From a virus, in the IMG/VR virus record IMGVR_UViG_3300028844_006278: 64,000 bases of DNA; one strand, written 5' to 3'. Below, piece after piece: positions 1 to 57,168 of the stretch. The notes beneath the pieces are model-generated. The model worked only from the letters and a program-made list of their open reading frames with translations. It was not told the origin of the DNA and did not search any database. A program made the position numbers and the translations under genes. Every line of letters starts with the position of its first letter. The first letter of the stretch is position 1.

Positions 1-237
1 TTCGATGTTCGATAACGACGACCGCTGGAGCCGGACGTTAGTCTTTATATGATCGATAGCCACAGGCAGTACCCGCTCCATTGCTACCTTAGATCGGAAA
101 AGCATTGCGATATTGTCTGACCGGTACAGGTCTCCCAGGTCTGCTGAGAGCGGGTGAACCATGAGGTCAGTAGGTGATGCGATGGATATCAGGACCTTTG
201 TCGGATCTATGTCTGGGAGCTCTGGATCTTCATTCAT
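1..237 (-). CDS. Hypothetical protein, runs off left edge; paralog of 2162..2548
   Basis: Not in ORF track. ATG at 237 gives MNEDPELPDIDPTKVLISIASPTDLMVHP...LYRSDNIAMLFRS...HIKTNV, aligning with PSVPSYDVLADLFVHIASYADIADYP...FFRKYYVDLIFQS...QIKNTV. Confidence 0.7.
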   Translation of the reverse strand, partial: MNEDPELPDIDPTKVLISIASPTDLMVHPLSADLGDLYRSDNIAMLFRSKVAMERVLPVAIDHIKTNVRLQRSSLSNIE

Positions 238-299: not shown

Positions 300-2147
300 T
301 CACGTATGGACAATCACGCACTGTATGTCCCCTCGCTGCCTAGTAACATACAAGAGTTCGCCCCAGATCTCTCCGGATATGTGGATCTTATCCCCGGCAG
401 CGAGTTGCCAAACCGGTCCGGATAGGGGGAAGTACTCGGCCGCTCTAGTCGGATCCAATGCCTGGGCAGGGCCGTCTGAGCCTACAGGTGGCCGAAAGAT
501 CTGGTAGGGCAGGGCATTAAGTATATGCTCATCACCATCCGATAATCGGAGGCCCAGCTTATAATACTCGCTTATGTTCGCTCGAGAGGTGCCGCTCACT
601 CGTTTAACCCCGACGGCAGGCCGGCCGGACTCTGATAGGTAGGACGAGACTACCCTATGGCCCTCCTGCAGATCTTCGCACGAATATGGACCACCTAGAG
701 GAGCAGGCACTGTGCAGACAGTAGTCCCCGGAAGTAGCGGTATGTCCTCAGACTCCGGTATAGCGATTGTAGGGCCTTCATACCGAATGTCCGTGTACGT
801 CGATAGATTATGCACTAGGAATCCGTTGGCGAATAAGGTTAGGTAATTTGCGACGTCCCATACAGCCACAGACTCTTCAGGTCCTTGGTGCTCATCTATA
901 CTTAAGATAGGATGCCATGCCCTATCCTTAGAGTACAACTCATCCTCTGCTCGTAGAGGCAGTATCTCCGATAGATATGGGTACTCCGCTGTGGCCTTGG
1001 CTGCATCTATGGCCTTCCAAGCTTCCTCTCCGGGAGCGGATCTAGCATATACGGGCTGAGTGTCTGAGATCTCGAGAGTACCTCCGGATAATGTCCGGAT
1101 CTGCCAGTACGCAAGCACGGATGATTTACAGGTACCTCTAATGGGCTGGAAATCTAGAGCGCCGTCGTACTCTGAGTATGAGAATACAGTATCTCCAGAG
1201 GCTAGATCCGATATAGGAACAACTCCCCGATCGCCGGTTAGTACGGTAGTAGAGCGGGATACAAGGGATCCCTTATTGTGTAAGAGCACCCCATCTGCGA
1301 AGTAGTTCCTATTGTCCTCTACCGCCCATAAATTATATACCTGCTTCTGCCCGGGATATTCCGATACAGAGGATATCTGATCCCACTCTCCACTCTTTGT
1401 TAGGACAAAGTCCCCTGCCGACATCTTCAGCAGTCGTCGTAGATACGGGTGCGATTTACGGGATCGGGAGGGGCAGTAGGATGCCCACCCTATCCCCGAT
1501 CCGGGCTTACGGACATACACTGGCTGGGAGGTGGTGATCCCCAGAGACGTCCCAGACTGTAGATTCAGCGTGATGTACCGGTCAACTAGCGGAGCATCTA
1601 TGCCGAGGACTCGTTTACCTTCGACCTGCTCGCTTACCTCGTTGTAGGAGAGCACAATGTCGCCTACCTGCACATCTTCGACTTTTATCTCCCCTCCTCC
1701 TGGAACTGATATTAAGGTGCTGGCCACTACGCATCCTCCTGGAATATCGTCCGAGGACGAGGACCCCGCCCCAACCTGCAACGTGCACAGATCCTGCATA
1801 AATACATGGGAGGCATTACGTACATACGGCATAGATATCTGCACAGGCGCGTCGAGCGTTACCCCTCGTACAGAGGATACGACAATATCTCCGTCTTCGC
1901 TGCGGAGAACGGCGCCCTCTACCAGTCCTCGATCCTTCTGGATAAAGCCAGAGGTGTTCTCAGCAGAGAAGAACTTGGTAGACGCTGAGAATACGTGGAT
2001 GTCATTTATTACGACAAATTCACGTACTGTTGTCTGAACTGCTTTGAATACCTTCCTCGTCTCAATATCTAGCTCCGGGGACAGCGTCGCTATCTCCATA
2101 CCCCTCTTCCAGGTCGGTAAAGCATCAAGCACGTCTTGATCCGTCAT
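300..2147 (-). CDS. Tandem multi-Hint (intein/BIL-like) domain protein
   Basis: GG-CVVASTLI...KVEDVQVGDIVLSY...VYNL..NYFADGVLLHN-K; second unit ...PISDLASGDTVFSY...LFANGFLVHN-L; two further degenerate units at the termini. Confidence 0.88.
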   Translation of the reverse strand: MTDQDVLDALPTWKRGMEIATLSPELDIETRKVFKAVQTTVREFVVINDIHVFSASTKFFSAENTSGFIQKDRGLVEGAVLRSEDGDIVVSSVRGVTLDAPVQISMPYVRNASHVFMQDLCTLQVGAGSSSSDDIPGGCVVASTLISVPGGGEIKVEDVQVGDIVLSYNEVSEQVEGKRVLGIDAPLVDRYITLNLQSGTSLGITTSQPVYVRKPGSGIGWASYCPSRSRKSHPYLRRLLKMSAGDFVLTKSGEWDQISSVSEYPGQKQVYNLWAVEDNRNYFADGVLLHNKGSLVSRSTTVLTGDRGVVPISDLASGDTVFSYSEYDGALDFQPIRGTCKSSVLAYWQIRTLSGGTLEISDTQPVYARSAPGEEAWKAIDAAKATAEYPYLSEILPLRAEDELYSKDRAWHPILSIDEHQGPEESVAVWDVANYLTLFANGFLVHNLSTYTDIRYEGPTIAIPESEDIPLLPGTTVCTVPAPLGGPYSCEDLQEGHRVVSSYLSESGRPAVGVKRVSGTSRANISEYYKLGLRLSDGDEHILNALPYQIFRPPVGSDGPAQALDPTRAAEYFPLSGPVWQLAAGDKIHISGEIWGELLYVTRQRGDIQCVIVHT

Positions 2148-2161
2148 AATAGTATGCTCCT

Positions 2162-2548
2162 TTAGCAGTCGTTAACTATTACTTCTACAGCCTCTTCGCC
2201 GTTAAGTCGAACCAGATCCTCTACTGTATTTTTAATCTGCCCTTCTATGAGATCCCACGTATCTGAGAGGTGCGGGAGACTCTGGAAGATGAGATCTACG
2301 TAATACTTACGGAAGAACGGAGAATCCTCGCCGGGATCATTCTCTGGATAGTCGGCTATATCGGCATAGGACGCTATGTGTACGAAGAGGTCTGCGAGTA
2401 CATCATAGGAAGGAACGGAGGGAAGTCTCTGGTACACGAAGACCGTCGGCGGAAGGTTATCGGAAGTCTCTGAGACCCAGACACGCATCCTATGTCGACT
2501 ATCCTCCTCTAGTGTCACCCTCCTTGAGATCTGTATGTAGCTGCTCAT
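2162..2548 (-). CDS. Hypothetical virion-associated protein
   Basis: 128-aa ORF in tail operon; paralog at 1..237. Confidence 0.7.
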   Translation of the reverse strand: MSSYIQISRRVTLEEDSRHRMRVWVSETSDNLPPTVFVYQRLPSVPSYDVLADLFVHIASYADIADYPENDPGEDSPFFRKYYVDLIFQSLPHLSDTWDLIEGQIKNTVEDLVRLNGEEAVEVIVNDC

Positions 2549-2551
2549 ATT

Positions 2552-2821
2552 CTAGACTGCTCCGCTGAGATAGAGGGCCTCTCCGTGTAGTTTCTCCGAC
2601 GAGCCCTGCGTCGGCACAGGTATTATGCCGGATTTGATGGCCGCCTTAAGAAGATCTAGACCTATTGTCGGATATCCTAACTCCTGGATTTCAGATGCCC
2701 CCGGCAGGCCTTGCTCCGCCAACTCATCTGTAGGATGCTCGTCTCCCTTTATGAGGGAGGCAAGGATACAGCTGGCTGCCGCCAATCCGTCACTATTGTT
2801 AAAAGTACCGGGAGCAATCAT
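2552..2821 (-). CDS. Hypothetical protein
   Basis: 89-aa ORF filling the gap, overlapping the upstream stop. Confidence 0.55.
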   Translation of the reverse strand: MIAPGTFNNSDGLAAASCILASLIKGDEHPTDELAEQGLPGASEIQELGYPTIGLDLLKAAIKSGIIPVPTQGSSEKLHGEALYLSGAV

Positions 2822-5097
2822 TTATAGGGAGATGGTGGAGCATATAGCAGGGTCGGGGCGGTGGCGTCAAGCGTGATACCTGTGTTTCTCCGTATATACG
2901 GAGCATCTACAAACCCGCGTACGAACGAAGTGTCGCCTGCGTTCAGAGTCTTCCCTATAGATATAGTGTTCGCCGATGGTAGGATGCTTCCGGCGAATGC
3001 CCTAGAGCCCAGCACGGTGCCGTCCAGGCTGAACTGCATGACGTTCCCCACCCTGTTCCATTCTAGCCAGTACCACGTGTCGTTATTTATAGTAGGAGTC
3101 CCACCACATCCCCAGTACCCTCCGTCCGGTCCCAGTCCTGCCATCCCCGCCTCAGTCCATGCCGAATATAGTGTTTTACCTCCGCTTGCTGCCCAGCCGG
3201 CAGGCTCGAAGGATATCACCCAGCACTCCCCGTTAGCGGAACCCCAGTTCGCAAAAATGTTCTGGTTTTGGGTATTATCTGTAGTACGCCATGCTATCCC
3301 TATCTCGAAGTTTTCTGTGCCGAAGTTGAAGCACGAGTGATAGTCTGCGGTAGCTAGGTCGGCACTAGTGTGCCTAGGGTCGTCGTACGTATTTCCCCAG
3401 TTCGGGAACGCGCCGGCAGTCATTGCGCCGTTGCCTCTTGTATTTATAGTCACATAGCTGCCTGCTGCGAAGCCTGTTATGCTGTCGGTGCCTATGTACG
3501 CCTGGGCGTTCGATACAGACGGTGTGCCTAGGGTAAGAGTTTGGTGCTGCTCTGTAGCATCTACCGCCGACCCTCCGTCTACATTAAGCGCAAGCAGAAC
3601 CTCGCAGCACATGTCTGCGCAGCAGTCGCAGTCATCGTACGACACTAGGGGAGTACTTACTGTATCTGGGGCCACGTCCGTCGTGTACTCTACGAAGGAA
3701 TAGCACTCTGAGCTGGACTGGAGTATAGAAGTAATGCCTGTTATTCCACCGGCATCCGACTCTTCGAATACATACTCGCCTCCTATTCCATCGCAGTCCT
3801 CGAACCTCATGCTTAGCGTAGTAGTATCACAAGTGGAGCAAAACTCGAACTCGTAGTCTATACTAGCGGCAGTAGTGGCAGCGGCTACGTATTGATCAAA
3901 CTCATAGCATACGCCGTCAATGCGTACGACCTCTGAGGTAGTGGTAGCGTCTGAGACAATCTGAGAGGAGGCCGGGTTATCGCACCTGACGTACTGTCGG
4001 TTATTGCCTGCACATGTCGCGCAATCAGCAAACTCGGCATCTATATCTACGCCCGTATGCGTGACAGGATCCGTGGTAGTGCTGATGAAGTCATAGCACA
4101 CTCCTCCTATCTTTATAGTCTGGGAACTTGTGTACTGGCTAGAAATAACCACCGCAGACGATCCGAGTATGCACTCCTCGTATAGCCTATATGTCTCACA
4201 AGCTCCACACGATGTGTGCGACGCATCAGGAGCCGCGTTGGTAGACGCGTCTTCTGTGAACTCGAAGAACTCGTAACACCCGCTGTTGATCTCTATTACA
4301 GAGTCTGTGGCCGGCACCTGGTTCTCAGGTATAATGACCTCGGCAACCCCGTCTACGCAAGACTTATACCTAGCCTGGATGCTAGTAGCAGCGCAGTCGG
4401 CGCAATCCGTGTAGTTCGAATAATCGATAGAGGTATGTGTCGTAGCAGCCAGTGTTGAGGATGTGGACGAGTAGCACACTTCATCAACTCGTACGATAAC
4501 TTGTCCCGGAGCTACGCTTTCCCGGATAACTAAGCTGGGGGCGGCAGCCGCACAATCTACGTACTCAATGGCGGAGAATGTGCTAGCGCATGACTCGCAA
4601 GTTACGAACTCGTTATCCACTGCAAACACGTCCGCCGCGGTCTCTACATACTCTGTAGACGAGTAGCATTTACCGCTGACCTCGACAATAGCTGCGACAG
4701 TTACCGCGTCGTCTATGTAGATAATGTCCGACGGATCTGCGCAGTTGGTATACCGTATGTTTAGGTCTATATCAGAGCAGTCCTGGCAGGTGTCGAACTC
4801 GTAGTCGAACTCTGTGTCGGTGATAGCGTCTTGGGTAGCGCCTACTCGCTCGTAACAGGCTCCGTCAATCTGGATAATTTGGGCATCTCCGGCTACAACC
4901 GGACTTAGTACTACAGGCATCTCAGGACCCCCGCAGTCTGTGTACTTTACGTTCGCTTCCCTGGCCGAAGAACTCCCCGGGCACTCCACAAACAGGACCT
5001 CGGAACATACCGTAAACCCCTCCCCATCGCACCGCAGCTCGCATCCCAAGGGGCGCTCTCTTACGGTGACATTTTCTATTCTGTGCTGGGAAGACAT
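2818..5097 (-). CDS. Cys-rich repeat protein with C-terminal LamG/ConA-like domain; putative fibre/adhesin
   Basis: Seven ~60-aa repeats Y-x-x-C...G-x-C-Y...F-x-x-C-x-x-C, then FNFGTENFEIGIAW...NDTWYWLEWNRVGNVMQFSLDG...ISIG...FVRGFVDAPYI (LamG-like). Confidence 0.8.
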   Translation of the reverse strand: MSSQHRIENVTVRERPLGCELRCDGEGFTVCSEVLFVECPGSSSAREANVKYTDCGGPEMPVVLSPVVAGDAQIIQIDGACYERVGATQDAITDTEFDYEFDTCQDCSDIDLNIRYTNCADPSDIIYIDDAVTVAAIVEVSGKCYSSTEYVETAADVFAVDNEFVTCESCASTFSAIEYVDCAAAAPSLVIRESVAPGQVIVRVDEVCYSSTSSTLAATTHTSIDYSNYTDCADCAATSIQARYKSCVDGVAEVIIPENQVPATDSVIEINSGCYEFFEFTEDASTNAAPDASHTSCGACETYRLYEECILGSSAVVISSQYTSSQTIKIGGVCYDFISTTTDPVTHTGVDIDAEFADCATCAGNNRQYVRCDNPASSQIVSDATTTSEVVRIDGVCYEFDQYVAAATTAASIDYEFEFCSTCDTTTLSMRFEDCDGIGGEYVFEESDAGGITGITSILQSSSECYSFVEYTTDVAPDTVSTPLVSYDDCDCCADMCCEVLLALNVDGGSAVDATEQHQTLTLGTPSVSNAQAYIGTDSITGFAAGSYVTINTRGNGAMTAGAFPNWGNTYDDPRHTSADLATADYHSCFNFGTENFEIGIAWRTTDNTQNQNIFANWGSANGECWVISFEPAGWAASGGKTLYSAWTEAGMAGLGPDGGYWGCGGTPTINNDTWYWLEWNRVGNVMQFSLDGTVLGSRAFAGSILPSANTISIGKTLNAGDTSFVRGFVDAPYIRRNTGITLDATAPTLLYAPPSPYK

Positions 5098-17153: not shown

Positions 17154-17572
17154 CCTGCCAGCCTCACGTCCCCTACAAGGGAGTTGGTGTTATCCAAGTA
17201 CTCCGGATTTGCCCGAGTACCTATCTCCGGTAGTAGTGCCTGTAGCACTCCTCCTGCATCTATGGCCCGGCGCTTACTGGTGAATATGCCTGCCCACTTA
17301 CTTATACGGTTACATCGTCCGCTCTCGTATGCACGCTGATAGTTCGCAAGAAAGGCGTTCGCCTCTAGCGCATTAATCAGAGTAGCCTGCCGGACAGAGG
17401 CTGTGTTTGCCAGAATGGAGATAAGCTCTCCGATATTCTGAGACAGCCACTGCGGAGTAAGCGCGACCTGCAGAGCTTCAAACGTGTCGTCCGATGCATC
17501 TAGACCCAGGATCTGGTCGATCTCGGCCGAATACTGGTCCGCTAGCAGTCTGCATAGCTCCCGTGGTGTCAT
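17150..17572 (-). CDS. Hypothetical protein
   Basis: 140-aa ORF with 4-nt overlaps on both sides. Confidence 0.7.
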   Translation of the reverse strand: MTPRELCRLLADQYSAEIDQILGLDASDDTFEALQVALTPQWLSQNIGELISILANTASVRQATLINALEANAFLANYQRAYESGRCNRISKWAGIFTSKRRAIDAGGVLQALLPEIGTRANPEYLDNTNSLVGDVRLAG

Positions 17573-18285
17573 GCCTTAACCTCCTCTAACTTCTGAACGA
17601 TCTTAGATACCCGCTGACTGATAGCTGGCTGAGATATGCCTAGCTTTGTAGCGATCTCCTTCTTACTTAGACGCGCTGCTCCGTTATATCCCGTAGTCCA
17701 CTCGAAGATCTTCTTATCTTTCTCTCCGAGATCGAAATACACGTAGTCGACCCATATATCTGAGGCGCTCTTCGACTTGCCAGCTAGATCACCTTTATCG
17801 GAGAGCGCTCGAGAGGTCGGAGCCTCCTTCAGTCTGGTTCTGTTTATCCGTTCCACAGATATGGACAATCCGTCCGCGATCGCTGTGTCGCTGGGTTCGC
17901 GTCCGTGAATGTCGGTATACTCTCGCGTGAACTCGTCCACTTGTCTGCGGTCGGTATGGGTCTGCTCTGGGAAGTGTAGGGCGTTCTGTCGCTTTGCCTT
18001 GATTCGGTTCAGGCGGCGTAGATGGTTGTAGACGTGCGTATTGAGAGCCGCGCCTCTGGTGGGATCGTAGCTCTTTATAGCATCTACAGCGAGGACACGC
18101 GCCTTTGTACGATACGCCTTATCTCCGCCTGCGTGCGCGGTAAGGCCGGACTTAACGGCGGGCTCTACCTCTTTTAGCACCGCATATAGATTATCGTCTG
18201 TAGGTGACTTCTTCCATTTCTCGAACGACTCCGGACCTGTTAGCTCGGATGTCTTCCTAAATTGTCCTTTGAGGCCGGGATGCAT
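17569..18285 (-). CDS. Sigma70-family sigma factor (alternative type, regions 2-3-4)
   Basis: Region 2 AIKSYDPTRGAALNTH; region 3 GREPSDTAIADGL; region 4 HTH LSKKEIATKLGISQPAISQR. Confidence 0.9.
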   Translation of the reverse strand: MHPGLKGQFRKTSELTGPESFEKWKKSPTDDNLYAVLKEVEPAVKSGLTAHAGGDKAYRTKARVLAVDAIKSYDPTRGAALNTHVYNHLRRLNRIKAKRQNALHFPEQTHTDRRQVDEFTREYTDIHGREPSDTAIADGLSISVERINRTRLKEAPTSRALSDKGDLAGKSKSASDIWVDYVYFDLGEKDKKIFEWTTGYNGAARLSKKEIATKLGISQPAISQRVSKIVQKLEEVKA

Positions 18286-39924: not shown

Positions 39925-42516
39925 TTAGGATTTGGCTTGGTTATGGACTACGACGCGGTGTGCGTACTTGTCTGCCCCGATGCCAGCCAGTAGTGAGATT
40001 TGATATTTCGCGTACTCATGCGACAAAACTCTTGACTCAGCACTCATTGTCGGCTCAACAAACATACTTGCCCGCTTGTGTTGCGGAGGACCGCCTTGGA
40101 TAACTACGAGGGTTATCCTACGACGAACCGGGTCATCTTCAATTGAGAAACTTGGTTTTATATCTTTAGCCAAGTCCTCCAACTCTCTCCAATAGGTAGG
40201 AGAAAGCGGAGTATAACTTGAATCCGATATAGCTCCGGACGCGGAGCACGCCGCATCGGGGGCTCCACATTCGGCTTCAGTAAAGGCGCCCCGCATAGCT
40301 GGGCACATATTATCGATGCCTGGGATCTGATCTTTGTCCTTCTTAGTGACTATCTGGGCAAAGGATTCCGGAGGCAGTAAAATCTTATGATTAGCAAGGC
40401 AGCCGAGTACATCTTCCAGGGGGAATTCCTTTAGACGCTTAATGATATCCTCGGGAAGTTCTTCGTCCGGGAAGGCTAAGGATAGATCTGACTCTTCTGG
40501 GGTGAGTCCTTCTGCTAAGATCTTCTTTTCGATCTCTGCGAGCTTAGACAGAGCATGGGCGTTATTCTTCTCGGATTCTGAGCCGACCTTGCTGATAAGG
40601 GATAGCGGAAGATACATGTTAGTAGCGTCATCTGCCGTGGGGTCTATCCCGCCGTTGCTGGCTACCTTGGCTAGTGCGAACGCTATCCTATCGGCCGGGA
40701 CACGGACTTTAGATATGTCGTGGAAATGGGGCTTATCATTGATCGCATAGACCTGGTGACCTTCTTTAGTGATCCCCAGCTTATTATACTTGAGGTGCTC
40801 GCAGTAGTTAGCGCGTGTCTTTGCCTCGTTGCCACATACCGAGCAGATATCGAAAGGAACGCCGCAGTTGTGGGTAGATATGCCGTTCGCCAAGTAGCTG
40901 TGGTGTTCCGATTCGACCTCTAAGTTAAAGACGTCTGTGCTTCTAACAGTCACGTCAATGCTAGATACTGGGACCAGCATATGATCTCCGACTATTCTCC
41001 TAGTGCGTCTAGTTTTGGCTGTTCCTTTAATCTCAGGAATCTTGGAGCTTAGGCCGTGTAGAGCCTCTGTAAGCACCCTGCTGCACCACAGCTGATATTC
41101 GTATGTGAAACCATCCTCTGTGTTAGCTGACGCGCTTGTGACGTGCTTGATATTGTTTATCGATACAGGATGTCCAAGCATAGGGAATAAAATCTGAAGC
41201 TGGATCGCCAGCTCTCTGCTGGAAGTGCTGAAGTAGGCATTGCCTCTAACGGAGTCAACATCTGATGAGGTATAGTACCCGCCGTCTCCCTCATGATATC
41301 CTCCAAGCAGTTCCCACAAAGCTCCGTCTACCCACTGGAATACGGAAGGATGGATGTACTTATTTTTTGCCCCTGATCCAAATAGCATTAGTAGTGTTTT
41401 AGCCAGGTCTGCATCGAACAAGTTGATTGAGAAGGCTTGGTCGCAGTCTCTTCTTTTTGACTCTACTGGAGGGTTTCTAGTCCCTATCTCCCGGCATATG
41501 TCGTTTATGCGCTCTCTTAGTGTGTCTGACGCATGACACGTAAAGCATATGCCTGAGGGGGTGCCGTCCTTATTGAACAGCACGTAGCCCTCAGCCAAGT
41601 AGTATCCGCAAAGCCGGGCAAAAGCTTCCGTTGCGTAAGCAGGATGAGCTACTGTTCTTGATAGGGGAGTCAGTAGGAGATCTCCCTCTAAGATTTCCGA
41701 CGCCTCTAGCCACTCAGCGCGGTCAATTACATCTCCATCCAAGATAAATCTGCCGCGCTTAAAGGCCTTTTCCCTACGTACCACCAAGAACGGGTGATTG
41801 GGGGTGCATTCTAGGGGAAGTCCTCCTGTGGGCTTTATGGTGTAGATCTCGATGTCATCATACGATAATGAGCGAATAGCATCTACTTTTGAGCTCTCAC
41901 CTGTGTGCAGTCGAACCTCGTCGCCTACGGCCACGTCTTGAATGGGAACTTGAGACATGTCGGACATTGTGACTAGTGTTCCGGATAGGAAGCAGCCCAT
42001 TGAAAATAAGACAGGAGTATCGGACGCCAGTTTATTCAGCGAGTCTGCCCATATATCGTTATCCAGCTTGACGACTAGTTCCCCTCTATGCATTGCCGGG
42101 TTATAGGCCTCTAGCTCTATACTTCCTAACGACTTAGCTCCTTTGCGGGAATTGTGGTGCTCCCTATACACTCCGCCGTATTTGCTGAACGTGCTGTGAT
42201 ACTGTGTAAGGCCGCCGTCGATCTTCTTCTGATATTCCCTGCCTGTGCGGTGATGCTCTGGGACGGTGATAGTCCCTTCCTTCTCGTTGAAGAAGTCCGC
42301 ATTGTTGTTAGGGCCGTAGAACTCTCCCGCACCTGTGGTAATGAGATGCACAAAGCTCTTACCCTTCTCCGGCTTGATGTCCATATGCATAACGTATTCC
42401 GACGCGGCGATCTTCGACATCTGCATCCTATCGACCCCTCGGCTGTGCACATCTATGAGATGGGCCGCCGGGTGGTCCTGGAACCAGCTTGTAGGGAGTA
42501 TGCTCTTAGGGATCAT
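39925..42516 (-). CDS. Prohead maturation protease (intein-containing)
   Basis: NNNADFF, YREHHN, LFSMG|intein|CGVPFDICSVCGN...CEHL, FHDISKV..PAD; canonical position before scaffold and MCP. Confidence 0.8.
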   Translation of the reverse strand: MIPKSILPTSWFQDHPAAHLIDVHSRGVDRMQMSKIAASEYVMHMDIKPEKGKSFVHLITTGAGEFYGPNNNADFFNEKEGTITVPEHHRTGREYQKKIDGGLTQYHSTFSKYGGVYREHHNSRKGAKSLGSIELEAYNPAMHRGELVVKLDNDIWADSLNKLASDTPVLFSMGCFLSGTLVTMSDMSQVPIQDVAVGDEVRLHTGESSKVDAIRSLSYDDIEIYTIKPTGGLPLECTPNHPFLVVRREKAFKRGRFILDGDVIDRAEWLEASEILEGDLLLTPLSRTVAHPAYATEAFARLCGYYLAEGYVLFNKDGTPSGICFTCHASDTLRERINDICREIGTRNPPVESKRRDCDQAFSINLFDADLAKTLLMLFGSGAKNKYIHPSVFQWVDGALWELLGGYHEGDGGYYTSSDVDSVRGNAYFSTSSRELAIQLQILFPMLGHPVSINNIKHVTSASANTEDGFTYEYQLWCSRVLTEALHGLSSKIPEIKGTAKTRRTRRIVGDHMLVPVSSIDVTVRSTDVFNLEVESEHHSYLANGISTHNCGVPFDICSVCGNEAKTRANYCEHLKYNKLGITKEGHQVYAINDKPHFHDISKVRVPADRIAFALAKVASNGGIDPTADDATNMYLPLSLISKVGSESEKNNAHALSKLAEIEKKILAEGLTPEESDLSLAFPDEELPEDIIKRLKEFPLEDVLGCLANHKILLPPESFAQIVTKKDKDQIPGIDNMCPAMRGAFTEAECGAPDAACSASGAISDSSYTPLSPTYWRELEDLAKDIKPSFSIEDDPVRRRITLVVIQGGPPQHKRASMFVEPTMSAESRVLSHEYAKYQISLLAGIGADKYAHRVVVHNQAKS
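40867..41994 (-). mobile_element. Intein with LAGLIDADG homing endonuclease (376 aa)
   Basis: CFLSGTLV start; LECTPNHPF block B; LCGYYLAEG and LLGGYHEGDG; VFNLEV...YLANGISTHN, +1 Cys. Confidence 0.95.
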
Positions 42517-47268: not shown

Positions 47269-49539
47269 TTACAACCTAACCGGGTCTAGCACTTTAGGAA
47301 CATATGATGTGCCCTCGTGCTTGCTACTGGATCCTAACTGGGCTGCCTCTAGGAATGACTTTTTAAGGCCAAACCCGGATAATCGTACTTTCCAGTCGGG
47401 ATCGCTTCCGAGGACACCCATCGCTCTAACCACGTGCGGCTCGAATCCGGGCCCCTCTTTATGAGTAACAATAGTCTCTACCCCGTTATCTTCCAAATCT
47501 TTCGCAATCTTCGACGTTACTTTAGTACCTATAGAGTAATGCATGGTAGGCTTCTCCAGGTACGTACCTACCGCCCGCTTTGGGCGCAAAGGGTTAGAAT
47601 CCTTACGTGGAATGTACTCACTAGCTAGCTGAGTATATGGAACAATGTCGGATATAGCATATCCCATAACGCCTTCCGGTCGTGTGATTTTAACTTTATC
47701 GAAGAATGCTCTGGACAATACCTCTACATTACGTCTATGCGAGGATACTCCGTTTTTTGTAAGGATCTCGTAGAACTTGTCTTGGAAGTACCGGCGGCCT
47801 TCCCCTAGCCCTTTCGCCTGCGCGATCTCTGCAGGGTTAGGAGTGCCGTCTGTGAGCACATCTCCAGAAGTCACCTCATCTCCCACCTTTACGGTAATAT
47901 TCCGTGTACCTGGAGAGTATTCTGGCTCTCCGTCTATATACACGTACTTGCCTCCTTGAGGGGCGTCTACGATGCGTGTGACCTTGCCGTCTCGTTTAGA
48001 CAGCACTGCGCCTCCCTTGAAAGTCTTAGGAACCTGGACGAATTGGTTTACCTCGTCGAACCCTGACACGTTGGACGTGTTCTCCCCTACCACTCCGCCT
48101 AAGTGCTTGGCGGATAGCGCGAGCTGCTGGGTCATTGGCTCTGATAATACTCGAGCAGACTCGATACCTATGTATGCTCCCATAGGCGGGAACTTATTCT
48201 GATCTCGTTTTCCGGAACACATCTGACATACGCCTTCCGGCATCTGGCAGGTTAGTAGTGACCGGATCATTACTCGCTTGCCTCTCAGGGTAGCGAGATC
48301 TTTACGGGATACGGCAGTATTTCTGGAGATGCCTTCAGTGTCCCGAGAGATGACTGATCCTAGTATCTCGGGGTCATCTCCATCTACCATAAGACCTACC
48401 CCATCTGCCCCGCAGTCCTTCCCGGTAACTCGAATGTGCTGCGACATAGCTGCGAGCTGTTTACCTAGAAATCCTGTCTTGGCCGTTGCGAACTGTACGT
48501 CTGAGTTGCTGACGATAAGGCCGTTCGCTAGTACGAACATATGATCGGGGTGATCTACTTCCAGGTCGTACGTAGGAGTTAGACCGAGGGGCTCCGGATC
48601 ACTCTGCTTCTTTAAGAATCCTGCTTTGGTCCACTCGTCCTTATCTAAGACAAGGGTCTTGTCGCTAACTCTACAGCGAGTCGCCTCTCCGATTGGATTC
48701 ATATCTCCGCCTCGGGTCGCCAGTATCTTGTGATCCGGGGTAGCCTCTATGTATATGGAGGCTCCGCTACCGAAGTGGTATCTGTAGACGACTCTTACGC
48801 CGTTGTAGTGCCTGTCGATAACCTGTACTGGGAATGTATCTCCGGCAGGGCCGGATCCGAGCACCCATTCGCCGGGCCCTATGTCCTCTATACGCTTAAC
48901 AGACGTGTCCGCCATCCGCACCAGAGTGTTGGGAGACAAGCAGTATCCTTTTCGCGACGCGTACGACCCTGCCCAGAACTCCGGACCAGTCACTCCTTCT
49001 CCGTATCCGTGCATTCCAGGGATAGGTACAGGGCGATCTCTGTGGTCTGCTACTAACATGTCGCCGAACAGGAGCTGCGTGAGCTGGGTCGGTGATCCGC
49101 GTAGTCCTTGCTTCACCATCTCCCCGTATGCGTTTGGACGAGTCTCCAGTTCGGCTAGTAGCGTCTTCTGGATAGTCGGCATAGCCTTCTGCATAGTCGA
49201 CATGATCTGCTCGTCCTTCTGCGCTGAAGTCAAGGCGTTGCTCTGAGAGATGGCCCGTATCTTCTCTTGCAGCTGCTTACGATATGCCTTTGTCTTCGGT
49301 GGCAGCCTAAGGTCTGTAAGCCGCAACGAGGATGTTCCTCCGTACTCAGTCGCAACTACCCGGGAGATATCGGAGAGTCTTTTCAGCACCGTCACGTAAT
49401 CGTCCGGGTGCTTCTCTGCTAACTCTTGGAAGAACGCCGACGAAGTCTTCTTGTTTAAGACTCGTCCGGGCTCTCGCATAGACTCGGGGATCGCCTGGTC
49501 TATGAGTATCCTCCCTAGCGTTGTACGGGCAGCGGGCAT
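47269..49539 (-). CDS. rpoC: RNA polymerase beta' subunit, C-terminal half (mini-intein-containing)
   Basis: Start refined to ATG 49539. TTLGR, GLRGS..QL, bridge helix SRKGY|SDVQFATAKTGFLGKQL, Zn site DCG...TCQMPEGVCQMCSG, trigger loop SEPMTQQLALSAKHLGG. Confidence 0.93.
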   Translation of the reverse strand: MPAARTTLGRILIDQAIPESMREPGRVLNKKTSSAFFQELAEKHPDDYVTVLKRLSDISRVVATEYGGTSSLRLTDLRLPPKTKAYRKQLQEKIRAISQSNALTSAQKDEQIMSTMQKAMPTIQKTLLAELETRPNAYGEMVKQGLRGSPTQLTQLLFGDMLVADHRDRPVPIPGMHGYGEGVTGPEFWAGSYASRKGYCLSPNTLVRMADTSVKRIEDIGPGEWVLGSGPAGDTFPVQVIDRHYNGVRVVYRYHFGSGASIYIEATPDHKILATRGGDMNPIGEATRCRVSDKTLVLDKDEWTKAGFLKKQSDPEPLGLTPTYDLEVDHPDHMFVLANGLIVSNSDVQFATAKTGFLGKQLAAMSQHIRVTGKDCGADGVGLMVDGDDPEILGSVISRDTEGISRNTAVSRKDLATLRGKRVMIRSLLTCQMPEGVCQMCSGKRDQNKFPPMGAYIGIESARVLSEPMTQQLALSAKHLGGVVGENTSNVSGFDEVNQFVQVPKTFKGGAVLSKRDGKVTRIVDAPQGGKYVYIDGEPEYSPGTRNITVKVGDEVTSGDVLTDGTPNPAEIAQAKGLGEGRRYFQDKFYEILTKNGVSSHRRNVEVLSRAFFDKVKITRPEGVMGYAISDIVPYTQLASEYIPRKDSNPLRPKRAVGTYLEKPTMHYSIGTKVTSKIAKDLEDNGVETIVTHKEGPGFEPHVVRAMGVLGSDPDWKVRLSGFGLKKSFLEAAQLGSSSKHEGTSYVPKVLDPVRL
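48505..48942 (-). mobile_element. Mini-intein (146 aa, no endonuclease)
   Basis: CLSPNTLV...IEDI; IEATPDHKI; TYDLEV...FVLANGLIVSN, +1 Ser. Confidence 0.92.
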
Positions 49540-49543
49540 AGAG

Positions 49544-50101
49544 TTATCTAAACTTATTATCGATGATGTTACCAAACACGGTGCCGAGGAACGGCACTGC
49601 CTGCCCTACCTCTATCCCCCTATCCTTCCAAGTCCTACCGTCTATCTTACCTGTAAGATGTTTTGCTATAGACATGAGCTTGGCCTTTCTAGTAGGGTCC
49701 TTTTCAGACGTGGCGGCTTCGGTAAGCACTTGGCGGCGAGCGATCAGCGCATTTCGGTGCTTTAGATTAGGTGCCCGAGTCCTTGCTTTTTTAGCATTGC
49801 CCTCGATATCTCCCTGTAGGATTCCTCTCTGGGAGTTGATAAAATCTATCTCTTCCTTAGAGATATCTGACGTGGGGTTGCCTAGAACGTAGTCTTTATA
49901 TTGACCTAAGCTGGATATACCCTTCCGTCTTCCCTGCATGAGCTCCCCTGCTGCAAGACCAACGCCTGCTCCGACGCCACCTCCAATCAGATACTTGTTG
50001 AAGGTCCTATCGGACTCGGGCACGAGCTTGCGGGTTAGCGCGACTCCGATGACAGCGCCGAGCGGGGTCGTAACTAGTGATGGGTTGATTGGATCCTTCA
50101 T
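49544..50101 (-). CDS. Gly-zipper membrane protein
   Basis: PLGAVIGVAL; LIGGGVGAGVGLAAG. Confidence 0.7.
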   Translation of the reverse strand: MKDPINPSLVTTPLGAVIGVALTRKLVPESDRTFNKYLIGGGVGAGVGLAAGELMQGRRKGISSLGQYKDYVLGNPTSDISKEEIDFINSQRGILQGDIEGNAKKARTRAPNLKHRNALIARRQVLTEAATSEKDPTRKAKLMSIAKHLTGKIDGRTWKDRGIEVGQAVPFLGTVFGNIIDNKFR

Positions 50102-52719: not shown

Positions 52720-55700
52720 CTATTCCAGTATGGTGATGGGGTCGTCTATTGCTATCTTACCTGACCTATACGCCTTTCTTGCATCGGCCACGGTATTGAA
52801 TACAGCGGCTGTCTTATCTGCAGGAGCCTTGGTAGCTAGATATAGCCCCTGCAGATATTCATTGGAAAGCTTATACGATGCCTGTCCTGATCGGGCGGAG
52901 ATTAGATTGCGGTCCGGCATCATGCGGTCGACCACTTGGGATACCGCCTCGTCCGAGACAGGAACGGTGAATGACGCTGTGTCTCCGTCATAGTCCATGG
53001 CGAATGGCCCTACAATGGCCGGAGGCACTTGGACGGTAGATCCTTTTACGAGTACCGGCCAGAATCCCATGACACTGTACTTGTGTAAGGTAGGCGCCCG
53101 ATTTAAGATGACAGGGCGCTTGGTGATAACAGACTGCAACGACTTGTACGCTAGGGGTGAGTGATCTTTGACCGCTGTTGCAGCCTCTGTGGCAGGGACG
53201 CCCTGTCGCACAAGGTCTCGGATAACAAACGGCTCGTATAGATTCCAAGCAAGCTTCTCTGGGATGCCCGCTTGGTTGAGTAGAAGGGACGGATTAGGTG
53301 CGACTACGCCTAGTCCCGACATATCGATATTAGTCCCTAGAACTCGGCGCTGAATGAAGCCTGTCTTCGGACTTCCTTTTCCGAATATGTGCGAAAGGAT
53401 GCCCTTTACGTTCTTCTGTACGAGCTGATCCTTCTTCGGATCGGATACACCGATGAGAGCCTTGTAGCTATCCCATAGATCTCTTCGAGCATCGTTACGC
53501 ATATCTGCCGGTAGTCCCTCTGTCTCGTTATAGTCGGAGATAGACTCCACTAGAGACTTATACAGGTAGTTCGGGTCGGCCACCATCGTCATCCCTCCCT
53601 GTGCTGATATAGGACGGAACCGAGGCGGAAGTACCGGAACTCGGGTCATCATGAAGTCCGATGGCTTCACCTTGTTAGTTTCGAAAGCATGTAGGAATCG
53701 GAACTTTTTTACAGCATCGTCGCGCTTAGATCTGATGCCGTGCTTTATCTCGTGCAGCGCCTTGGCCTTTTCTGCCTTGACGTCGATTCTACCTAGCTTG
53801 TCGGCTAGAGCGTCCTCTCCGGAGGCCACTAAATCCTCCATCTCGGTTCTTTTTAGGCCCAATATACGCCGTATAGGGTCTACCATGATAGGGTTAGGCA
53901 TGGCCGTAGGGAGGTCAATGTATGCCCATCTGTCGCCGTTAGCCGAGCTTCCGGTAGCGTCGGGGTCAAATAGGCCTCCTGGGATGGGCTTAAGACCTTT
54001 TGCTGTATATGTATCACCGGTAGAGATCTTTCTATTTCCGGTAAGGTCTTTTGCCTGTTGGTTGGTCATAGAGAATATGTCGTCGGAGAACGCGCCTTCC
54101 GACAGATGTACTCCGCCTGCTCTGAGGAGGTCCTTAAACTTCTCGTAGACTAGCGGAGTCTTCGGCATGGTAGGGGTCTGTCCCAGCTTCAGCTGACGCC
54201 AGAACATATCGTTCTTCTGCCCCTTGATGAGCTTCATGTCCTTGAGGACCTCTGTCGCCCCGTGTGCTAAAAGAGCCTCTTGGTACATCTTGCCTAGGTG
54301 TTTAGCGCCTGTCTTGCCTCCCTTGGCCGGCTGGTCCTCTGCTGTGTACTTAGCCTGTGATCTGGACTTGCCTTTACCTTCGGACGTATGCTGCATCTTG
54401 TAGAAGTACGTCACTCCGGTAAATATCTGGGGGATCTTCTTCCCGGTTCTCGGATCTACTAGGTCCTCTCTATCGGATAGTCTATTCTTCTGGAGCTCGC
54501 TATGGGTGAACTCTATCATGTCTTCGTCTGAGAATCCCGGTAAGACGTAGGGCTTGCCTGTCTTCTCTGCGATCTTGCCTAGCTGGGCCTCTAGCTTCTG
54601 TGCCGGGTTAGTTCTGCTGACTACTCCCAGGGGAGACAGTATGACGTCCATCTTTCTGCCCTTAGGGTCCGTCGGCATCTCAGAGTCCTTGATCACCTTA
54701 GAGATTACGCCCTTGCCGCCGTGCCGCATGGCCAGTTTATCTCCTACGCCCATGGGTATGTTCGTACGGACATTGATGTAGTACTGCTCTTTGCCTTCGG
54801 TCGCGTCTGTGACTACTCCGGGGTGTCTCTTCTCCCACAGCACTGCCTTGTTGGAGCGCATGCGGCGGCCAAGGGATCCACCGGCATGCGGATCCTGCTC
54901 GGACATCGCCAGAGCAAGCGGATCTCCATATCGTACGACCGATCCGGGCTTTATCATCCCCGTCGTTTCGTCGATCTTAGCGAGCTGCTCTTTATTGAAG
55001 GCGGCGGGGAAATTAGCTCTGAACTTATCCTTAGAGACAGACAGGTCCTTTTCCTTCTTGAACTTAGCATGATACATATGCTCTGACGTGAGCTTCTTAG
55101 CTGCCGTCTCGGATATAACAATGGCATCCTCGAACACCAGTCCGTCATAGTTCCAGTACGCTACGCGGAGATTAGTCCCGAGGGCCGCTACTCCCTTATC
55201 GCTGGTGAAGTTACTGGCTGCGAGCATGTCGCCCTTCTTCACCTTGTCTCCGGCCTTTACTAGGGCCTTGTTGCGGATGTACGTGGATCGGGCATACGGA
55301 AAGTTCTCGTACAGATCCACGGATCCCTCGGATCCGTCCGCATAGGTTAGGTCTACTCTATTCTTGCGGACGGCCTTAACTGTGGCGTCCCTAGAGGCGC
55401 GCACTGCTCCGAGATGGCCGCCTATGCGTCTCTCCATGCTGGTGCCGCTTCCGGGATCGGTAGTTCTTACTAGCGGAGCCTCTCTGCTCACCAGAGGAAG
55501 TGCCTGGGGCCCAAATTTCGAGCCCATTAATAAACGCATTCCCTTATCTCCGGATTTCAGAGGAACCAGGTTAGCCCCATCGCTAAACATATCATCGTTG
55601 TTCGGTACGACGTAATCGATGTCTTCACGCTTTACCCATGCCATGCCCTTATTAGGCACCATCGCAATTACGTAGGGGTCTGTGTTCTTCTGGAATCCCG

Positions 55701-57168
55701 GCCATGTCAGGTTCTTTCTAGCGGCCTCTCGGATCCCTACCCACTTCTCCTTACCTGTACGGGCATCTATGAATTTAGAGTACAGCTGACGGTCGGGGCC
55801 TCTACGTACGTTGCGCGACATCTTCATATCTACGCCGATCTTTAAGCTTTCCGGAGCACGAACTGGATCAATGTAATTCAGGTACGTGGGCTGTACGCCT
55901 CGGGCCTCTTTAGGGACAACATCTACGCTAGTCATCGCGCCCTCGCCTAGGCGTAAGATCCGCTGGTTCTGGTCGTACATGTCTAGCGGATTGATCTCTT
56001 CGATGGGCTGAGCCATCCCTGAGCTGACAAACAGATGCTGTACGTGTTTATCGAGAGGGGCGGTAGGTACTGCAGATATGTCTCCGTTCTTCTTTGAGAC
56101 TTTCCATAGGATCTGTCGCAGCACTCCGTTCTGGTCGTTGGCTACCTTGTCACTAAGGAAGTCCGATATATCCCAGACGTCCTGGAACTCTAACGAATCC
56201 CTACTGTCGGAGTCTTCGTCTCCTTTGGCAACCCGCAGGATCTTCCCGGTAGCCGACATAATAGCCTCTGGAGAAGCGTTGGTGTGATCCTCTCCGAGAG
56301 TAACCCTAGTGACCCGGGGGTTGAGTCCGATTTTACCGAACTCTTCAGTAAGTCCTTCCCGGACCGTGTCGTTGTATAGGGAGGACACTGTCGACCCTGT
56401 CTTCTGCTGTAAGAGCTGTGCAACTACAGGCCCTGCCTTGGCGTCCAGTGCTATGGGCGCTGCCGGTGCATCTGGCTCTGGGGCAACTGCGAATCCTTTT
56501 AGGAAGTTGACTGCGTAGGGAGACTTCTCTAAGGTCCTGTTCTTCTCCGCGATGTCTTTTCCCCACTGCGCCTCGATATCTTCGTGCTGCTTACCCATGG
56601 CCCGGAGGATAGGATATAGCGGAAGCTTACGGTTCTTATACTTCATGTAGAAGAAAGACGTCGACGGCTCCATGTATATACGGAAAGAGGGCCCGGACCG
56701 TGGAATAGCGTTGAACTGGGCCTCTATGTTCGAGTCATCCGTTACGCGCGTGTATATTCCTGAGTTGAGACGAAGCTGCTTCGCTACAGTGTATTCCGTG
56801 CCGTTACGTACGTACGTGCCTCTGTCTGTAAGGTACGGCACGTTTATGATAGTCTTCCGGCCAGTTCTGCCTAGCGACTTGCCTGTCTCCTTATCGATAA
56901 CCTCCCACCGACCTGTCACCTTATCGCTAAGTGTCCGGCCCTCTAGGATCGCGTCCTTCTGCTGGGACAGCGAGTATCTACCTTTAGGCTTAGCGTACGC
57001 GACGTCTGTGGCCTTTAGCATGTATCTGTCGTTTTCGGAAAACGCTGATTGCTCTACTGAAGACAGGACCTTCTTTCGAAGATCGGTTCGTACTGAATCG
57101 TAGTCCGTATAATTTAGGAGACCGGTACCATCTGAGAAGTCCGGAGCAGGAGAAGGCATCTCAGGCAT
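52720..57168 (-). CDS. rpoBC: RNA polymerase beta subunit fused to the N-terminal half of beta'
   Basis: Beta: GTYVRNGTEY, DPVRAPES, FEDAIVISE, GDKLAMRHGGKGVIS, SPLGVVSR. Beta': GGLFD, VPVLPPRFRP, LNRAPTLH, AMDYDGD. Confidence 0.96.
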   Translation of the reverse strand: MPEMPSPAPDFSDGTGLLNYTDYDSVRTDLRKKVLSSVEQSAFSENDRYMLKATDVAYAKPKGRYSLSQQKDAILEGRTLSDKVTGRWEVIDKETGKSLGRTGRKTIINVPYLTDRGTYVRNGTEYTVAKQLRLNSGIYTRVTDDSNIEAQFNAIPRSGPSFRIYMEPSTSFFYMKYKNRKLPLYPILRAMGKQHEDIEAQWGKDIAEKNRTLEKSPYAVNFLKGFAVAPEPDAPAAPIALDAKAGPVVAQLLQQKTGSTVSSLYNDTVREGLTEEFGKIGLNPRVTRVTLGEDHTNASPEAIMSATGKILRVAKGDEDSDSRDSLEFQDVWDISDFLSDKVANDQNGVLRQILWKVSKKNGDISAVPTAPLDKHVQHLFVSSGMAQPIEEINPLDMYDQNQRILRLGEGAMTSVDVVPKEARGVQPTYLNYIDPVRAPESLKIGVDMKMSRNVRRGPDRQLYSKFIDARTGKEKWVGIREAARKNLTWPGFQKNTDPYVIAMVPNKGMAWVKREDIDYVVPNNDDMFSDGANLVPLKSGDKGMRLLMGSKFGPQALPLVSREAPLVRTTDPGSGTSMERRIGGHLGAVRASRDATVKAVRKNRVDLTYADGSEGSVDLYENFPYARSTYIRNKALVKAGDKVKKGDMLAASNFTSDKGVAALGTNLRVAYWNYDGLVFEDAIVISETAAKKLTSEHMYHAKFKKEKDLSVSKDKFRANFPAAFNKEQLAKIDETTGMIKPGSVVRYGDPLALAMSEQDPHAGGSLGRRMRSNKAVLWEKRHPGVVTDATEGKEQYYINVRTNIPMGVGDKLAMRHGGKGVISKVIKDSEMPTDPKGRKMDVILSPLGVVSRTNPAQKLEAQLGKIAEKTGKPYVLPGFSDEDMIEFTHSELQKNRLSDREDLVDPRTGKKIPQIFTGVTYFYKMQHTSEGKGKSRSQAKYTAEDQPAKGGKTGAKHLGKMYQEALLAHGATEVLKDMKLIKGQKNDMFWRQLKLGQTPTMPKTPLVYEKFKDLLRAGGVHLSEGAFSDDIFSMTNQQAKDLTGNRKISTGDTYTAKGLKPIPGGLFDPDATGSSANGDRWAYIDLPTAMPNPIMVDPIRRILGLKRTEMEDLVASGEDALADKLGRIDVKAEKAKALHEIKHGIRSKRDDAVKKFRFLHAFETNKVKPSDFMMTRVPVLPPRFRPISAQGGMTMVADPNYLYKSLVESISDYNETEGLPADMRNDARRDLWDSYKALIGVSDPKKDQLVQKNVKGILSHIFGKGSPKTGFIQRRVLGTNIDMSGLGVVAPNPSLLLNQAGIPEKLAWNLYEPFVIRDLVRQGVPATEAATAVKDHSPLAYKSLQSVITKRPVILNRAPTLHKYSVMGFWPVLVKGSTVQVPPAIVGPFAMDYDGDTASFTVPVSDEAVSQVVDRMMPDRNLISARSGQASYKLSNEYLQGLYLATKAPADKTAAVFNTVADARKAYRSGKIAIDDPITILE

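Follow-up and report, generated by a model that had tools for sequence, protein, structure and literature searches.

Closest described systems

Hint domains are known as inteins, as processing domains of Hedgehog proteins and, in BIL modules, as single units through which a neighboring domain is released or varied. Here, we describe a phage gene that encodes Hint domains only. In the virus record IMGVR_UViG_3300028844_006278, of which a stretch of 64,000 nucleotides (the window) was analyzed, an open reading frame (ORF) at positions 300..2147 on the minus strand encodes a protein of 615 amino acids (aa), P0001, which consists of four Hint units and nothing else, with almost no extein. An earlier note on this DNA had proposed this architecture, with a different set of residues in each unit, and it was confirmed by BLASTP, phmmer, hhalign, and structure models.

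The closest solved relative of unit 2 was BIL2 of BUBL1 from Tetrahymena thermophila (6TMM, 6Y75; Dassa et al., 2004; Chiarini et al., 2021), with a phmmer E-value of 5e-7, 27–28% identity, a Foldseek template modeling (TM) score of 0.88–0.90 and a root-mean-square deviation (rmsd) of 2.2 Å. The titles of both entries name Tetrahymena BUBL BIL2 (molecule name 'ADP-ribosyltransferase'). BIL2 resembles unit 2 in its Cys1, its His-Asn end and a W-x-S-x-CP insertion, and also lies in a repeated array within one gene. According to its authors, the ubiquitin-like domain upstream of BIL2 becomes joined to a lysine by an isopeptide bond (PMC8616854), and the use of a lysine acceptor fits the Lys found at position +1 in the phage family. 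However, BUBL is a ciliate gene in which BILs alternate with ubiquitin-like cargo, whereas the Hint units of P0001 follow each other directly, with linkers of 3–22 residues and no cargo. Besides, BIL2 contains the block-B His (H69), where P0001 has Gln or Leu.

A-type BILs (Amitai et al., 2003; Dassa et al., 2004) contain Cys1 and a conserved His-Asn end, lack Cys, Ser, or Thr at +1, and occur in fast-changing, non-conserved proteins (PMC7765530). An N-terminal Cys, His-Asn and the absence of a +1 nucleophile were found in unit 2 and in the family consensus, and units 1, 3, and 4 are degenerate derivatives; the link to A-type BILs is based on this residue pattern and on the Clostridium thermocellum BIL (2LWY; TM 0.86 to the P0001 model). 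A variable host protein is a further similarity, since P0001 shows 53% identity to its orthologue compared to 76–89% for most neighboring genes and the number of units varies. In contrast to P0001, described BILs are single and lie between real flanking domains of secreted bacterial proteins, and most of the catalytic residues have been lost in P0001.

Canonical mini-inteins (Ssp DnaB, gp41-1, Mtu RecA) showed the same Hint fold (TM 0.72–0.80) and the same layout of blocks A, B, F, and G as the family consensus. P0001 differs from them in that it contains neither a +1 nucleophile (Lys292 and Leu448 instead) nor a homing endonuclease, interrupts no conserved host protein at a functional site and has no non-Hint body. 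Cys, Ser, or Thr at position 1 was present only in unit 2, and the block-B Thr-x-x-His in none of units 2–4. In Pfam, the PT-HINT domain (PF07591) of polymorphic toxins weakly matched the C-terminal region of unit 2 (E 0.0018, with a score below the cut-off). It resembles the BIL-like units in its self-cleaving role in variable proteins; P0001, however, has no downstream toxin domain and contains several units instead of one.

Four Hint units and their residues

The features of the gene are given below with their positions in the window.

Shine-Dalgarno sequence, 2157..2162, minus strand: AAGGAG, 9 nt upstream of the ATG at 2147–2145; overlaps the stop codon of the upstream 128-aa gene.
P0001, whole gene, 300..2147, minus strand: 615 codons plus stop at 300–302; full-length orthologue P0002 (53% identity) on a syntenic contig.
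Unit 1 (aa 1–138), 1734..2147, minus strand: degenerate Hint without Cys1 and without the insertion; LQ instead of the terminal His-Asn; ends in a disordered Ser/Gly linker ...IPGG138.
Unit 2 (aa 139–291), 1275..1733, minus strand: best-kept Hint, with Cys139, His290-Asn291 and +1 Lys292; block-B His replaced by Gln208 (TTSQPV, nt 1518–1535).
Linker Lys292-Gly-Ser294, 1266..1274, minus strand: family-typical K-G-x junction, 100% identical in P0002 and P0004.
Unit 3 (aa 295–447), 807..1265, minus strand: Leu295 at position 1, Gln364 (SDTQPV) at the block-B His, block-F Tyr replaced; His446-Asn447 kept and followed by Leu448.
Linker of 22 residues (aa 448–469), 741..806, minus strand: disordered (pLDDT <50 for 449–467); 28% identity to P0002.
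Unit 4 (aa 470–615), 303..740, minus strand: Hint cut before block G, with Pro470 at position 1 and Leu at the block-B His; ends ...IVHT615.

Units 2 and 3 aligned without gaps (BLASTP 7e-24, 29% identity) and scored i-E 6e-53 and 1.8e-31, respectively, against the hidden Markov model (HMM) of their own family. Unit 4 was matched to unit 2 by BLASTP (1e-5) and to units 2 and 3 by phmmer (8e-6 and 6e-5). Compared to a profile of 45 diverse Hint units, it aligned over columns 3–130 of 150 (hhalign 95.9%, E 5.8e-9) and thus ends before the two last strands, which carry His-Asn; the strand order in the AlphaFold model agrees with this truncation. A MAFFT alignment that paired the final VHT of unit 4 with VHN was rejected as an artefact of gap placement, since both the model strand order and hhalign favor truncation. 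The last 25 residues of unit 4 (EIWGELLYVTRQRGDIQCVIVHT) were strongly conserved in the alignment with P0002.

Homology of unit 1 to the other units was not detected by BLAST. It was, however, shown to be homologous to the N-terminal domain of the related protein P0003 (phmmer 4e-10), which still ends LVHN/GGGGG/C, and its match to the Hint profile spanned the C-terminal half as far as the His-Asn position (hhalign 87%, E 3.7e-6). When folded from its own alignment of four sequences, unit 1 reached a predicted local distance difference test score (pLDDT) of 67, compared to about 88 in the full model. Among 48,161 PDB representatives, all 30 matches to the unit 1 model with a Z-score of at least 2 were inteins or BILs; the best was 6tmm (BIL2; Z 6.2, rmsd 3.1 Å over 100 residues), and Foldseek agreed weakly. 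Units 1 and 4 both identify as Hint, by hhalign and, for unit 1, by the fold search. The description of unit 1 in the earlier note as a very degenerate Hint, and of unit 4 as stopping before the His-Asn block, therefore stands.

The full-length model of P0001 had a mean pLDDT of 79 and contained four separately folded units, with disordered linkers at 126–136, 293–297, and 449–467. A Foldseek search with it gave 53 PDB matches at E<=0.001, and the 50 matches listed were all inteins, BILs, or Hedgehog domains. The protein scored below the curated Pfam cut-offs (in brackets) for Intein_splicing at 28.5 bits (35.8), Hint at 23.0 (29.7), Hint_2 at 23.7 (28.4), and PT-HINT at 19.0 (27.7), and PHROGs gave only one weak, unannotated family; its Hint homology is established by methods other than Pfam scoring. 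No extein with a recognizable function was found in P0001 with Pfam and PHROGs.

All residues quoted in the earlier note were found in place (G138/C139, Q208 in TTSQPV, H290-N291/K292, L295, Q364 in SDTQPV, H446-N447/L448, P470, and the end at T615). Cys1 is missing from three of the four units, with unit 1 beginning at the initiator Met, and judged by the residues at the predicted catalytic positions, none of the units contains the full set.

The family of the Hint units

An exhaustive search found 1885 proteins related to P0001. Residues were tallied with a model of 153 positions built from unit-2-like matches, against which the best 152 representatives of the 1885 were scored. Cys was present at position 1 in all 294 domains aligned from that position, and 277 of the 294 contained the terminal His-Asn, with +1 being Lys in 191 and Arg in 29. 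The block-B His was found in all 259 complete family units; at this position units 2–4 of P0001 instead contain Gln208, Gln364, and Leu. Among 281 near-complete units Cys1 was absent from just seven, two of which are unit 3 of P0001 and unit 3 of P0002. The family signature can be written as Cys1 ... Thr-x-x-His ... His-Asn followed by Lys. Since Cys1, the His-Asn end, and Lys or Arg at +1 match the residue pattern of A-type BILs as summarized in PMC7765530, the domains form a large family that, by sequence, is A-type-BIL-like.

Of the 152 proteins, 73 contained head-to-tail units separated by linkers of <12 aa (KG, KC, KGG, K, and others), with as many as seven units in a row; linkers of 1–5 residues were frequent. 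The insertion W-x-S-x-x-P...HPYL belonged to the consensus of the whole Hint subfamily and was also found in Tetrahymena BIL2. The earlier note had taken this insertion, shared by units 2–4, as a sign of duplication within the gene. This interpretation was not upheld, as the insertion is family-wide and the tree of units (see below) places the array before the split of the phages.

A tblastn search of 50,697 deposited phage genomes with P0001 found only single inteins in Vibrio phage helicases, matched through unit 2, and a search of the same genomes with the related array P0005 gave no matches. No relatives were found in IMG/VR with the N-domain alignment or the whole protein. Several viral clusters of proteins with only Hint domains, or with more than one, were present in the ESM Atlas and BFVD, those from the Atlas being 248–771 residues long with 50–156 members each. 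These matches suggest that Hint-only proteins occur in many uncultured phages. A bacterial cluster that combines Tim44 with Hint domains (Tim44 + PT-HINT + Hint_2) was also among the nearest ESM Atlas structures. Full-text searches of the literature found no paper on head-to-tail Hint or BIL arrays without exteins or on Hint-only phage proteins. The type of domain is known, but the cargo-less tandem architecture in a phage and its catalytic decay appear to be undescribed.

Relatives at the same gene position

The orthologue P0002 (53% identity to P0001) lies on a contig, L002, that is colinear with the window gene for gene. Its called start is probably 16 codons too far downstream, since the in-frame sequence upstream of it (L002:9953–10000, MTIDDISNAWPTWRRGM) matches the N-terminus of P0001. 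The N-terminal 16 residues of P0001 were conserved both there and in the third orthologue, P0004.

Intact arrays were found in related phages. P0005 comprises 663 residues, of which 92% are Hint, in four intact units. In the contig of P0005, which represents a more distant phage with neighboring genes 46–61% identical, the array lies between an orthologue of the 128-aa gene (53% identity), immediately upstream, and, downstream, those of the M10 peptidase genes. P0003 consists of an N-domain, seven intact units and a proline-rich, collagen-like tail, and P0007 is similar; both genes lie a few genes away from the same terminase block. Multi-Hint homologues of P0001, for which the earlier note had proposed a search, are therefore represented by the intact arrays P0005, P0003, and P0007 besides the head-to-tail proteins described above. 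The number of units is three plus an N-domain in P0001, four in P0005, and seven in P0003. As these genes occupy the same slot, this group of phages contains a Hint-only gene of varying unit number and integrity.

The tail of P0003 (residues 1223–1285), like the ends of P0006 and P0007 (L003, L009), is proline-rich and in short stretches collagen-like (G-x-y), and the three tails share a conserved final motif, C-x-E-E-C-x-x-x-P. This tail is missing from P0001 and P0005. The proline-rich tail of the intact arrays may be their real 'extein'.

Decay and evolution of the array

In a tree of single units, units 2, 3, and 4 of P0001 each paired with the P0002 unit of the same number with full support, units 3 and 4 being on long stems. 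This pairing shows that the array is older than the split between these phages. P0004 branched outside P0001 and P0002, and its unit 2 retains the block-B His; loss of this His is therefore the latest step. Identities between P0001 and P0002 were 45, 69, 57.5, and 40% for units 1–4, respectively. Conservation was thus highest in unit 2 and lowest in unit 4, although the C-terminal 25 residues of unit 4 are conserved.

Most neighboring genes were 76–89% identical between the two phages compared to 53% for the Hint gene. The rate of nonsynonymous substitution (dN) was 0.44 for the Hint gene vs. 0.07–0.18 for most neighbors. Since the synonymous rate (dS) was saturated (at least 1.2) in every gene pair, dN/dS could not be estimated and only dN was compared; the Hint gene changes 3–6 times faster than its neighbors. 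Sharply conserved patches remained in P0001, among them HI(L/I)NALPYQIF and the C-terminal 25 residues of unit 4. The frame has stayed open in P0001 and P0002 despite their divergence, which supports an evolution that is fast but not neutral.

Interpretation of the decayed array

The reading that we favor, though with little more than even confidence, is that P0001 is a catalytically decayed Hint array that persists in a structural or host-contact role, as four beads that process themselves little or not at all. The ancestral gene at this slot would have encoded head-to-tail self-processing units, each preceded by Gly, Ser, or Cys and running from Cys1 through Thr-x-x-His to His-Asn followed by Lys, a form still present in related phages. 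From this form, the chemistry may have been lost step by step: both ends in unit 1, Cys1 in units 3 and 4, the last two strands in unit 4, and most recently the block-B His in unit 2. Given this stepwise loss, P0001 is most likely one unprocessed chain of 615 residues, which would be made and used as four Hint beads joined by flexible linkers. It would presumably have a structural or host-contact function and belong to a fast-evolving part of the phage genome. Thioester chemistry would be absent, and at most a slow cleavage by Asn cyclization could take place after Asn291 and perhaps after Asn447. The earlier note had offered three functions, a self-cleaving polyprotein, a protein-ligation device, and the use of Hint folds as structural or binding modules; the last is favored for P0001, while the other two fit the intact P0005 and P0003 better.

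Several observations weigh against this interpretation. Cys139, His290-Asn291, and Lys292 are still present in all three orthologues (P0001, P0002, P0004), and unit 3 of both orthologues likewise retains its His-Asn. Some inteins are described as splicing without the block-B His (Friedel et al., 2019, as cited in PMC8616854), and unit 2 may therefore still work. The activity of the ancestor is deduced from the relatives and not from a rooted reconstruction. Besides, placement of P0001 in the virion or tail is tentative: the neighboring genes contain almost no families recognizable with Pfam or PHROGs, and the basis for such an assignment is a weak match to Baseplate_J, 13 kb away, together with the surrounding variable genes rich in a Cys module (see below).

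It is less likely, although it deserves consideration, that P0001 still processes itself. Unit 2 would then form a thioester at Gly138/Cys139 and pass unit 1, which ends in Gly-Gly, to a lysine, either Lys292 or one in another protein, with splicing, an isopeptide link or simple cleavage as the outcome, and Asn291 and Asn447 would cyclize. The expected pieces are 1–291 (or 1–138 and 139–291), 292–447, and 448–615. The residues that this chemistry uses in unit 2 (Cys1, terminal His-Asn and +1 Lys) are those retained in the three orthologues, together with an identical K-G-S linker, in the slowest-evolving part of the protein; the isopeptide bond formed by Tetrahymena BIL2, the nearest solved relative (PMC8616854), and cleavage of A-type BILs at their C-terminal Asn (PMC7765530) point in the same direction. 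However, retention of four residues in a domain of 69% identity is expected by chance in about 1 in 4 cases, and with only three orthologues it is statistically uninformative. The block-B His is invariant in the 259 family units and has been described as key to catalysis in BIL2, yet unit 2 of both P0001 and P0002 contains Gln in its place, and unit 3 lacks the family block-F Tyr as well. A wider form of this idea, which we consider improbable, is that the phage arrays, intact in P0005 and P0003 and partly surviving in P0001, could constitute an enzyme-free lysine-conjugation system like BUBL, with unit 2 active despite Gln208. Each unit would hand the preceding module to a lysine, either the +1 Lys or one in a virion or host protein, and isopeptide-linked chains or stapled proteins would result; in P0001, unit 1, with its Gly-Gly end, would be attached by unit 2 either to Lys292 or to some target.

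The gene might also be a functionless relic close to being lost, with the Hint units as selfish or neutral passengers in an ORF that merely happens to be still unbroken. None of the long genes nearby evolves as fast, the catalytic residues of P0001 have been lost progressively, and it contains no extein of recognizable function. Yet this explanation is unlikely, as P0001 and P0002 are both uninterrupted over ~615 codons despite saturated synonymous divergence, a strong Shine-Dalgarno sequence is present, all four units give confident folded models, and the sharply conserved patches point to purifying selection. Finally, the truncated unit 4, which ends at about Hint column 130–134 of 150 and is best conserved in its C-terminal segment, could resemble the large half of a split intein, to which a separate protein would supply the last two strands and the His-Asn end, docking or ligating in trans. 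We regard this as very improbable. When all six-frame ORFs of the 164.9-kb genome were searched by pattern for a lone block-G strand with a His-Asn end, only units 2 and 3 and one unconvincing match were found, and ligation chemistry is impossible in unit 4 since it lacks both Cys1 and the block-B His.

Genomic context

The window comes from a complete virus record of 164,893 bp with terminal repeats, representing an uncultured phage. Its genome also codes for a multisubunit RNA polymerase, a sigma-like factor, a gpA-type large terminase and two true inteins. One of these lies in an 863-aa protein (39925–42516, minus strand) and contains a LAGLIDADG endonuclease; the other is a Hint in the C-terminal subunit of RNA polymerase beta-prime (47269–49575, minus strand). 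Only the ends of both matched the Hint-unit model, which is the expected pattern when an intein contains insertions. A 1482-aa protein (52720–57168, minus strand) combines RNA polymerase beta (Rpb2_6) and beta-prime N-terminal (Rpb1_1, Rpb1_2) domains in a single chain, and a 238-aa protein (17569–18285, minus strand) contains sigma-70 regions 3 and 4. The terminase gene (L005:4989–6737, plus strand) was located ~12 kb beyond the Hint gene on the opposite strand, and between the two lies the gene of a 610-aa matrixin (M10) metallopeptidase protein (L005:12994–14826, minus strand).

The Hint gene was surrounded by genes that share a short Cys-rich module, encoding proteins of 759 aa (window 2818–5097, minus strand), 1031 aa (L005:15362–18457), 144 aa (L005:14912–15346), 610 aa (the M10 protein, L005:12994–14826), and 778 aa (L005:10644–12980). 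The genes given with L005 positions lie in the genome downstream of the window start. Pairwise BLAST connected several of these proteins (E 1e-13 to 4e-4); P0001 does not contain the module. The 759-aa protein gave nothing in Pfam and PDB sequence searches, in which the 1031-aa protein gave one weak match, to tail needle gp26. No Pfam or PHROGs matches were found for the ten nearest upstream genes.

Directly flanking the Hint gene are a 99-aa gene downstream (window 1–237, minus strand) and the 128-aa gene upstream (window 2162–2548, minus strand). By eye, these two proteins and the middle of a 354-aa protein inserted before P0005 (L006:8852–9916) resemble a small paralogue family with the motif ...IAS..DL...P.D..LYR...AMLFRS...; BLAST joined only the 354-aa and 99-aa proteins (33%, E 1e-11).

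Implications

As a Hint-only protein has no obvious product to release, it must be asked what purpose the array serves. This clade of phages offers a natural comparison at a single slot, where intact arrays of four and seven units can be set against a decayed form that has kept its folds and its frame. If the decayed form is still functional, the Hint fold would be used here structurally or for binding, independently of catalysis. If the intact forms link proteins through an isopeptide bond to the +1 lysine, as their closest solved relative does, they would be compact protein-ligation devices, which may be of practical interest.

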